Program-made: the position numbers and the translations under genes | Notes under the pieces: generated by a model | What the model was told of the DNA's origin: nothing | Seen by the model: only the letters and a program-made list of their open reading frames with translations | Database searches by the model: none | In this document: in pieces, positions 24 through 235 of the stretch | How the letters are laid out: every line of letters starts with the position of its first letter | Position numbering within the stretch: the first letter of the stretch is position 1 | Source: a virus | Taxonomy: Duplodnaviria; Heunggongvirae; Uroviricota; Caudoviricetes | Length of the DNA stretch: 4,704 bases | Strand: one strand, 5' to 3' | IMG/VR virus record: IMGVR_UViG_2690316115_000002

Positions 24-51
24 AAATAAAAAAGCCTTCACTGCGGAAGGC
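24..51 (-). terminator. Candidate Rho-independent terminator on the minus strand
   Basis: Plus-strand 34-51 gccttcactgcggaaggc forms a 6-bp stem (GCCTTC/GAAGGC) with a 6-nt loop. On the minus strand the hairpin is followed by TTTTTTATTT (complement of 24-33). It overlaps the stop codon of the 38..235 ORF. Folding energy not computed. Confidence 0.5.
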
Positions 52-235
52 GTCTGTAACAACCGAACTGATAGTCTGCCAGACCCGCCATAACCAGCTG
101 AGTCAGTATTAACTGGCAGCGTTCGCGTGAAAGGTAAGTATTCTGCGCTATCTCCCCGACTGTCGCCGGTTCGGTAACGCTTAATTCATTAAACACCACT
201 CTGGCGGTTTCTGTCATATCCTGCTGTTTTAGCAT
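38..235 (-). CDS. Hypothetical small protein, 65 aa (MLKQQDMTETARVVF...), possibly a helix-turn-helix/winged-helix-like fold
   Basis: The six-frame ORF is 38..328 but begins with GTG at 328. The internal ATG at 235 is preceded on the minus strand by aaAGGGAaaaagacATG, an SD-like AGGGA with a 7-nt spacer, so the shorter form is preferred. Stop TGA at 38-40. No family recognised from memory. Confidence 0.45.
   Translation of the reverse strand: MLKQQDMTETARVVFNELSVTEPATVGEIAQNTYLSRERCQLILTQLVMAGLADYQFGCYRRLPQ

Follow-up and report, generated by a model that had tools for sequence, protein, structure and literature searches.

What is the function of a 65-codon open reading frame (ORF) that lies just downstream of a phage antiterminator gene, with a terminator-like hairpin on either side? 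The question is raised by IMG/VR virus record IMGVR_UViG_2690316115_000002 (Caudoviricetes), whose stretch of 4,704 nucleotides (nt) was analyzed and is called the window below. An earlier note on this DNA had taken the ORF either for a small regulator carried as cargo (a moron) between the antiterminator gene Q and the lysis genes, or for a fortuitous frame in a leader region. We consider it close to certain that the ORF is a real gene for a winged helix-turn-helix (wHTH) protein and that it belongs to a module with a DNA methylase gene. A small regulator remains the best reading of its role, as judged from genetic context, and we assign a probability of roughly 0.55 to the view that the protein is a dedicated regulator of that methylase. 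Transcriptional and translational control would both fall within this figure.

The elements on which the argument rests are listed here in the direction of transcription.

352-382, minus strand: predicted tR'-type intrinsic terminator (stem 382-362, T-tract 361-352), 8 bp with 5 G-C pairs, then TTTTTTTAT
260-297, minus strand: conserved non-coding block CTTGCTG-N17-TATTGG..TGTCAC, with a -35-like TTGCTG at 296-291 and a -10-like hexamer at 273-268
243-247, minus strand: Shine-Dalgarno (SD) sequence AGGGA of the small ORF, read from the sequence, 8 nt before the ATG; anti-SD duplex -5.3 kcal/mol
38-235, minus strand: small gene for a predicted wHTH protein of 65 amino acids (aa), ATG 235-233, TGA 40-38; identical in protein to phiP27 L23, homologous to SfV orf47, PHROG 331
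24-51, minus strand: stop-codon hairpin and T-tract (arms 51-46 and 39-34, T-tract 33-24), 6 bp with 4 G-C pairs, then TTTTTTATTT
1-21, minus strand: first 21 nt of a leader RNA of about 137 nt, placed by a covariance model (5' strand of P1, UGGGC, at 15-11; P2 from 10)

The anatomy that the earlier note had read here, namely an SD sequence, two flanking terminator-like hairpins, and a position between Q with its tR' and the lysis genes, was correct in every coordinate. Beyond this anatomy, the pattern of substitutions marks the ORF as a genuine, strongly conserved gene under purifying selection. The copy in phage phiP27 differs from it by 20% at synonymous sites without a single amino-acid change (proportions of synonymous and nonsynonymous differences, pS 0.20 and pN 0). 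For the SfV copy the ratio of nonsynonymous to synonymous change (dN/dS) is 0.03, and copies from Kluyvera, Citrobacter, Klebsiella, and Salmonella have a pN of about 0.09 with synonymous sites saturated. Codons vary freely across the invariant motif C-Q-L-I-L-T-Q-L of helix 3, with six leucine codons in use at L42, and selection therefore acts on the protein. Of 33 genome and phage loci, 31 have an unbroken frame, and 76 of 76 viral-contig copies retain the full 65 aa. Anti-SD duplex energies at homologous loci range from -2.9 to -6.6 kcal/mol, and the spacing of the SD sequence is conserved.

The N-terminus MLKQxDMT is conserved in all 32 loci with an intact ORF, and ATG 235 is therefore the start. 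A 96-aa version beginning at GTG 328 was rejected; its upstream extension is not conserved and differs between database entries, and the 96- and 106-aa versions found in databases carry N-terminal extensions that are unrelated to each other.

A homology search with the 65-aa sequence, one of the checks proposed earlier, returned relatives across genera. The exact protein (100% identity) is encoded by phiP27 (gene L23) and by several Shiga toxin 2 (Stx2) phages, and SfV orf47 is 94% identical. The DNA of the ORF occurs in 2157 of 5426 complete Escherichia coli genomes (~40%), at up to 8 copies per genome, and multiple copies are found in pathogenic E. coli. Further homologues are present in Shigella, Salmonella, Klebsiella, Citrobacter, Kluyvera, Buttiauxella, Scandinavium, Mixta, Mangrovibacter, Hafnia, Proteus, Providencia, Morganella, and Plesiomonas, and the frame is intact across more than 12 genera. 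The ORF is carried by 57 of 50,697 phage records. The family is narrow, with 61 representatives at 50% clustering among 1.8 billion proteins, many of which are fragments.

A model built by AlphaFold2 from a 14-sequence alignment (predicted local distance difference test, pLDDT, 92.9; predicted template modeling score, pTM, 0.80) confidently predicts a winged helix-turn-helix with the topology H1-S1-H2-H3-S2-wing-S3. Helix 1 spans residues 9-16, helix 2 residues 26-33, helix 3 residues 37-49, and the wing residues 53-62 (strands 53-56 and 59-62). The peptide TVGEIAQNTYLSRERCQLILTQL, which had earlier been likened to the recognition helix of a helix-turn-helix, covers helix 2, the turn, and helix 3 of this predicted fold, and so the guess agrees with the model. 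Residues R39, Q41, T45, and Q46 of the recognition helix are invariant, and the wing is basic. All top Foldseek matches in the Protein Data Bank (PDB) are winged-helix domains with expect values (E) of about 2e-3. They include MarR, OhrR, and SarZ proteins, IclR N-domains, the winged-helix domains of small-molecule O-methyltransferases, and the mRNA-binding domain of SelB, with template modeling (TM) scores of 0.7-0.86 to OhrR, SarZ, and the IclR N-domains. Matches of this kind do not discriminate between DNA binding, RNA binding, and a role in dimerization.

Profile searches place the protein in PHROG 331, a family labeled 'unknown function' (E 1.4e-37, 128.7 bits, residues 1-64 on positions 35-98). 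Curated families were matched only below their cutoffs: MarR_2 (PF12802) reached 14.7 bits against a gathering threshold of 27, and the best match in an NCBIfam scan, Lrs14, scored 12.4 against a cutoff of 90. Many RefSeq copies bear the name 'TrmB family transcriptional regulator', which is unearned because the scores sit under the curated thresholds. The gene is annotated widely, as hypothetical or as TrmB family, and is nowhere characterized. A PADLOC scan of the ORF returned no defense-system family. A match to the Mu Com family (PF10122) was absent from the Pfam scan of the ORF, and the protein has only two cysteines (C40 and C59). The polar invariant residues of helix 3, the basic wing, and the conserved DNA block at 297-260 give indirect support to the protein as a candidate winged-helix transcription factor.

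The gene downstream bears on its role. A methylase gene follows the ORF in 32 of the 33 informative loci (34 loci in all), from E. coli to Proteus and Plesiomonas, and the gap from the ORF stop to the methylase ATG is 138-154 nt throughout. Among annotated phages, phiP27, SfV, and mEp460 encode an adenine methyltransferase of about 350 aa some 150 nt after the ORF, and the same order is present in Hafnia yong2, Morganella IME1369_02, and Providencia PSTRCR_117lys. When the search was anchored on the methylase instead, the ORF was found in 76 of 76 viral contigs with enough upstream sequence. These contigs are close relatives only (93-98% methylase identity) and are silent on distant methylases, which a tblastn search of phages covered. 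The linkage between ORF and methylase is obligate. The earlier note had proposed to look for conserved synteny between Q and the holin gene; it is the pairing of ORF and methylase that is kept, and the upstream Q varies. At least three Q families precede the ORF (a 130-aa PF06530 type, a 250-aa SfV type, and a 220-aa yong2 type), and Q and the ORF may be separated by further genes, such as L22 in phiP27 and gp51 in mEp460. The methylase stays fixed while Q varies, and therefore the ORF belongs with the methylase and not with Q.

One informative locus departs from this rule. In a metagenome-assembled genome from Enterobacteriaceae (L023 2501-2802), a 5'-truncated ORF and an intact leader (98 bits) are present, and the methylase was not detected downstream. 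This sole break in the linkage is probably a decaying prophage.

From these sequence comparisons the ORF and the methylase emerge as a mobile two-gene module, of which the ORF is the upstream half and the methylase lies just past the left edge of the window. The order of the module is a tR'-type terminator, a promoter-like block, the SD sequence and wHTH gene, the stop-codon hairpin, the 137-nt leader, and the methylase. The neighboring enzyme is a 349-aa protein of the beta-class N6_N4 type (PF01555, E 1e-44) and is 93.4% identical to that of phage 1720a-02. The latter has been described as 'very similar' to M.EcoGII, a 349-aa, prophage-borne, non-specific adenine methylase, which is unexpressed in the lysogen, deleterious when expressed constitutively, and active alone as a purified protein (PMC5778455). 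By its resemblance to the 1720a-02 enzyme we provisionally place the methylase in the M.EcoGII/M.EcoGI type, with non-specificity presumed from M.EcoGII. A restriction endonuclease gene was seen in none of the annotated ORF contexts examined. This methylase family occurs in 96 of the 50,697 phage records. Its SD sequence is weak in loci that carry the ORF (-2.4 to -3.4 kcal/mol) and gives -4.2 to -4.3 kcal/mol in loci that do not, of which there are only two. The idea that ORF loci have poorer methylase SD sequences was set aside as not decisive, given a small difference and two ORF-less loci.

The spacer between the two genes carries a structure of its own. Its roughly 150 nt are more conserved than the synonymous sites of the ORF and contain compensatory substitutions. 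The full leader is known from a prophage of E. coli 09-02E (L001:7885-8021, minus strand), and the remainder beyond the first 21 nt lies past the left edge of the window. The consensus is a three-way junction in which P1 (UGGGC/GCCCA) closes P2 and P3, together with a P4 hairpin and a short, conserved AUCAG/CUGAU pairing that stops 3 nt short of the methylase AUG. The two strands of P2 are GGCUGGUGGGUG/CACCCACCAGCC in E. coli, GACUGUAAAAGUG/CACCUUUACAGUC in Proteus, and CGCGGGACGAG/CUCAUCCCGCG in N15.

A covariance model, R1, was built from the leader alignment. It matches 42 of the 43 loci searched, in phages of Enterobacterales, Vibrio, and Aeromonas, and finds the leader of Vibrio phage Valp1, which is outside the seed, at 48 bits. 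Compensatory changes occur in 23 of 31 pairs, and G-U pairs assign the RNA to the gene strand. Cells of the alignment are paired in 90.7% of cases against 32-45% with slid partners, and 0 of 500 shuffles reach the observed values, statistics to be read with the caveat that the alignment was fitted to the model. No family in Rfam 15 matches the leader (scan of L001 7700-8500), and the Rfam scans of that segment and of window positions 1-1000 gave sub-threshold matches only, to IsrK (18 bits), a Trp leader, and a wrong-strand P26. On this comparative evidence the leader is a strongly covarying RNA motif and a candidate new cis-regulatory RNA.

Two other ideas about the spacer were examined and rejected. 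A conserved small ORF within it (ATGGGCGGCTGG...) stops after 7 codons in Kluyvera-type loci and suffers frequent single-base indels. An 8-nt repeat, CAGAGTTA, found upstream of both the ORF and the methylase in some loci, was considered as a general operator and is missing from the window's own leader and from Proteus-type leaders.

Transcription into the module would have to pass two hairpins. A terminator scan of window positions 1-1000 found three sites, against 1.0 +/- 0.8 in shuffles; the third (915-897), with a poor T-tract, falls within the DUF968 gene. The hairpin at 382-362 is by its sequence a textbook tR', and nearly all of the 33 upstream regions in the alignment have such a terminator ahead of the cassette, irrespective of the type of Q. 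The second hairpin, described earlier as a strong hairpin with a T-tract, is indeed present at 51-24, with a folding energy of -9.5 kcal/mol and 9 T in the next 10 nt. Its description as a terminator holds in canonical form (8-9 U in 10) only for the E. coli/phiP27 subclade, which includes the window. Loci from Kluyvera, Citrobacter, and Salmonella have 6-7 U in 10, and the tract is poor in the remaining ones. Most Enterobacteriaceae loci retain the stem, with compensatory changes in 3 of 6 pairs and 82.5% paired cells against 47-61% when slid; Proteus, Providencia, and Morganella lack the hairpin. The TGA of the ORF spans the loop and the 3' arm of this hairpin, and therefore a terminating ribosome would melt it. 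Translation of the small ORF could in this way favor read-through into the leader.

Upstream of the ORF, within the block at 297-260, TTGCTG and AGAGTTA hardly vary among 33 loci, whereas the flanking sequence drifts. The block has the look of a sigma-70 promoter with a good -35 hexamer and resembles the annotated late promoter of N15 and phiKO2 (TTGGCA-N17-TATCTT), and no palindromic C-box was seen in it. Possible roles are those of a weak promoter, an activator-dependent promoter, or the operator of the protein, and Q-independent transcription of the ORF could start from it. An RNA hairpin in this region (CUGG/CCAG) was rejected for its inconsistent pairing register and uncompensated changes.

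Relatives with other gene arrangements are informative about which parts of the module travel together. In the telomere phages N15, phiKO2, PY54, and PhiR46_1, a gene called gp51 lies directly upstream of a late promoter, a terminator, the leader, the methylase (gp52), a second terminator, and the holin gene (L116 1306-1803 for N15 and L120 1003-1503 for phiKO2). The 75-aa gp51 product is annotated as a wHTH protein in phiKO2 and is a probable distant homologue of the ORF protein (hhalign 88-89%, E ~3e-6). Judged by a full-length tblastn match, the old annotation of N15 gp52 starts about 234 nt too far downstream.

A different small gene takes this place in Aeromonas phage phiARM81ld (L115 1201-1544), where the leader is followed by a gene for a Com zinc ribbon (PF10122, 27.9 bits against a cutoff of 22.9) that overlaps the start of a 55%-identical methylase gene. 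Vibrio phage Valp1 (L123 1213-1465) has the same layout, with a zinc ribbon that scores 16.3 bits on PF10122, under the 22.9 cutoff. Both phages have a com-mom-style arrangement with an N6-adenine methylase. In Mu, and in Mu-like prophages where com lies upstream of genes for non-specific adenine methylases that stand in for mom, Com is a small translational activator of a harmful modification gene (PMC3299994). With Com and wHTH proteins both found as neighbors, the slot beside the methylase has thus been filled repeatedly by a small regulator. Aeromonas phage phiO18P, in which the methylase gene lies between those for holin and endolysin, has no leader match and is the one negative of 43 loci.

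SfV (L003 3001-4397) and mEp460 (L004 3001-4407) do not differ in their leader, have nearly the same methylase, and share the block upstream. Their wHTH alleles are about 53% identical, with differences everywhere but the N-terminus and helix 3, a pattern that suggests recombination inside the small gene.

If the small protein is a dedicated regulator of the methylase, the module could work as follows. In the lysogen, tR' and the second hairpin would stop RNA polymerase before it reaches the methylase gene. Once the prophage is induced, polymerase modified by Q would pass both hairpins, and the small protein would be made first; alternatively, a low level of it may be synthesized from the promoter-like block. 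The protein would then act as a nucleic-acid-binding regulator through its invariant recognition helix (R39, Q41, T45, and Q46) and its basic wing, on a target that we infer to be either the DNA block upstream of its own gene or the leader RNA. It would thereby set the amount of a toxic methylase, much as Com does for mom in Mu, and the sign of this regulation could be either positive or negative.

Several observations weigh against this proposal. All matches of the protein to DNA-binding families fall below the curated cutoffs (for TrmB, PF01978, 18.0 bits against 25.6), its fold matches are generic, with non-DNA-binding dimerization domains at the top, and it is slightly acidic overall. The block at 297-260 was not called by a consensus promoter scan and is without a canonical -10; the scan missed it because the last T of the -10-like hexamer is missing. 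Searches of the literature returned neither a paper on this protein or the leader RNA nor any experiment or expression data for the protein. The approximately 53% identity of the SfV and mEp460 alleles, despite a shared leader and methylase, limits strict co-evolution of protein and target outside helix 3. Moreover, Serratia OS31 and Vibrio VHML have the leader and the methylase, with a somewhat better SD sequence and neither small gene. Together with the activity of M.EcoGII alone, this indicates that catalysis does not depend on the small protein, and that expression does not depend on it in every phage.

Other explanations fit parts of the same evidence. The ORF is short, it lies just downstream of tR', and its Pfam matches are sub-threshold, as might be expected of the fortuitous frame in an untranslated late leader that the earlier note had considered. 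The conservation pattern refutes this, with dN/dS values of 0-0.03, a frame intact across more than 12 genera and all 76 viral contigs, a confidently predicted fold, conserved SD spacing, and the PHROG 331 match, and we leave the idea almost no weight. An independent moron, a self-contained promoter-gene-terminator unit expressed in the lysogen and unrelated to the methylase, with a product that controls other prophage genes or those of the host, would agree with the classical position in the Q-to-lysis interval, the conserved promoter-like block upstream, the terminator downstream in this clade, and the multiple copies in pathogenic E. coli. A free moron would reassort, whereas this ORF is almost never found apart from the methylase (32/33 and 76/76) and keeps a fixed spacing of 138-154 nt. 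The association even persists in N15-like phages despite their rearranged layout, the downstream U-tract is lost in most genera, and the -10-like hexamer is poor. Measured against known morons, the ORF has its own terminator, canonical only in the E. coli/phiP27 subclade, but does not occur independently of its neighbors. The cargo position proposed earlier is therefore right as to the interval and wrong as to free-standing cargo, since the ORF is the fixed upstream half of the methylase module, and we judge an independent moron improbable.

The leader RNA is central to a further proposal, which is a special case of methylase regulation rather than a departure from it. Here the wHTH protein would bind the leader or the AUG-adjacent hairpin and switch methylase translation, as an analogue of Com. 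The weak methylase SD sequence (-2.4 to -3.4), the AUG placed 3 nt after the conserved AUCAG...CUGAU pairing, the strong structure and high conservation of the leader relative to synonymous sites of the ORF, and the Com-type regulators encoded between leader and methylase in the relatives from Aeromonas and Vibrio all point this way. Winged helices can also bind RNA, and the SelB mRNA-binding domain is among the fold matches. Most small wHTH proteins bind DNA, however, OS31 and VHML use the same leader without a small protein, and the methylase SD sequences of ORF-bearing and ORF-less loci differ little, so we hold such an RNA gate to be somewhat unlikely. We are similarly tentative about the proposal that the protein and the three-way-junction leader form a new post-transcriptional switch, in which the protein binds the leader, or the leader senses S-adenosylmethionine (SAM) or S-adenosylhomocysteine (SAH) and the protein tunes it.

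The small protein might instead be a protein partner of the methylase, as an antitoxin-like inhibitor, a dimerization or targeting subunit, or a sensor of methylated DNA. The enzyme is toxic (PMC5778455), and a small upstream gene is in the usual position for an antitoxin. The best Foldseek matches are winged-helix domains attached to SAM-dependent methyltransferases, and winged helices that read N6-methyladenine (m6A) have been reported. The fold E-values (~2e-3) do not set these matches apart from MarR and IclR regulators, M.EcoGII is fully active alone and has relatives without a partner, and a 150-nt structured spacer with a terminator is atypical of toxin-antitoxin pairs. A protein partnership of this kind seems to us quite improbable, and regulation of methylase expression by the small protein is the reading that we prefer.

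Comparison with characterized systems helps to define what is familiar about this module. The com-mom pair of Mu, and the related loci FluMu hin1523, Pnm1 nma1821, and hia5, likewise have a tiny regulatory gene directly upstream of a gene for a host-harmful adenine-modifying enzyme of broad specificity. In systems of this type, synthesis of the enzyme is confined to late lytic growth, and its translation is restrained by a structured mRNA leader (PMC3299994). Com differs in being a four-Cys zinc ribbon whose gene overlaps the downstream start codon. The ORF protein, by contrast, is a predicted winged helix encoded about 150 nt from the methylase gene, across a gap that holds a hairpin or terminator and a three-way-junction RNA, and its regulatory function is suggested by context.

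The controller (C) proteins of restriction-modification systems, such as C.PvuII and C.AhdI, are also small HTH proteins encoded just upstream of a modification or restriction gene, with a weak promoter, putative in the present case, that could be autoregulated. The C proteins belong to the Xre type of HTH, act as dimers on C-boxes, and set the timing of endonuclease rather than methylase production. In the present case the fold is a winged helix, no endonuclease is present in the annotated contexts, and no C-box-like palindrome was found. The domains of MarR, TrmB, and IclR proteins share the H1-S1-H2-H3-wing topology, whereas the ORF protein is a bare 65-residue domain with neither a dimerization nor a ligand domain.

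The IsrK-orf45-anrP region of Gifsy-1 and the StxS region of Stx phages resemble this locus in their series of Q, a constitutive late promoter, a short RNA, tR', and a small ORF reached by read-through (PMC4825925, PMC7547250). In Gifsy-1, orf45 is conserved in its nucleotides and variable in its amino acids, and acts by translational coupling to anrP (PMC4825925). In our ORF it is the amino-acid sequence that is conserved, and a methylase gene follows 150 nt downstream. A further parallel is with gp51 of N15, phiKO2, and PY54, a probable distant homologue with the same leader RNA and methylase family downstream. In those telomere phages the wHTH gene is separated from the leader by the late promoter and terminator, whereas in the lambdoid cassette the promoter-like block comes before the wHTH gene.

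The remainder of the window provides the setting for the module. All genes of the window are on the minus strand, and those upstream of the ORF, with the interval that separates Q from the terminator, are as follows.

3542-4450, minus strand: DnaC/IstB-like ATPase gene
2145-3545, minus strand: DnaB-type helicase gene
1891-2148, minus strand: 85-aa ORF
849-1844, minus strand: DUF968/HNH gene
451-846, minus strand: Q antiterminator gene, 131 aa from TTG 846 (PF06530 Phage_antitermQ, E 6.4e-53)
352-450, minus strand: Q-to-terminator interval, the expected pR'/qut region and short pR' transcript, ending in tR'

RefSeq starts Q at ATG 831, which gives 126 aa, and labels it 'antiterminator Q family protein' in the 09-02E prophage. 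Along the 70-nt stretch between the Q stop and tR', positions 359-431 on the minus strand bear a weak, sub-threshold likeness to the Salmonella small RNA IsrK (RF01394, 18.3 bits against a gathering threshold of 50, E 0.24). IsrK is a short Gifsy-1 transcript that lies between antQ and its terminator (PMC4825925), and StxS is the equivalent short RNA of Stx phages (PMC7547250). By this resemblance, the stretch is probably this phage's own short transcript made constitutively from pR'.

The E. coli 09-02E prophage is 98.3% identical to window positions 1-4604 and continues past the left edge of the window in the order ORF, DNA methyltransferase, tRNA-Ile/Arg/Arg, SASA/NanS-p esterase, holin, and lysozyme. 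There the 65-aa protein is WP_000917767.1, a 'hypothetical protein'. By gene content, the region is the Q-to-lysis late interval of an Stx-type lambdoid phage that lacks stx. In this prophage (L001), the tRNA-Ile/Arg/Arg cluster and the NanS-p esterase gene lie at 6539-6788 and 4196-6049, as is typical of Stx phages. The stx slot is empty, with no stx genes between the tRNA cluster and the SASA esterase gene. At the other end of the window, collinearity with 09-02E stops at 4604. Positions 4605-4704, read on the plus strand, continue with TGAACCGCCCCGGGAATCCTGGAGAC... and then with an ORF that begins MTKNTRFSPEVRQRA. This segment looks like the end of an IS3-family insertion sequence (IS629/IS1203-like) inserted in the gene upstream of the DnaC-like gene.

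A small wHTH regulator beside a DNA-modification gene belongs to a known class. What would be new, if confirmed, is its pairing with an RNA that Rfam does not match, and a parallel to com-mom built on another fold. Should the protein and the leader indeed form a post-transcriptional switch, it would license translation of a toxic methylase only in the last minutes of lytic growth, and a non-homologous replacement of Com would have spread over the lambdoid and telomere phages of Enterobacterales. In many Shiga-toxin phages the ORF lies directly upstream of the methylase, tRNA, and stx block. Assigning the small gene to the methylase as its partner would provide a testable handle on how a lethal, restriction-evading methylase is silenced in lysogens and switched on after induction. 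This may in turn bear on phage host range, on the epigenetic state of transduced DNA, and on the expression of an enzyme that is widely used as a research reagent.

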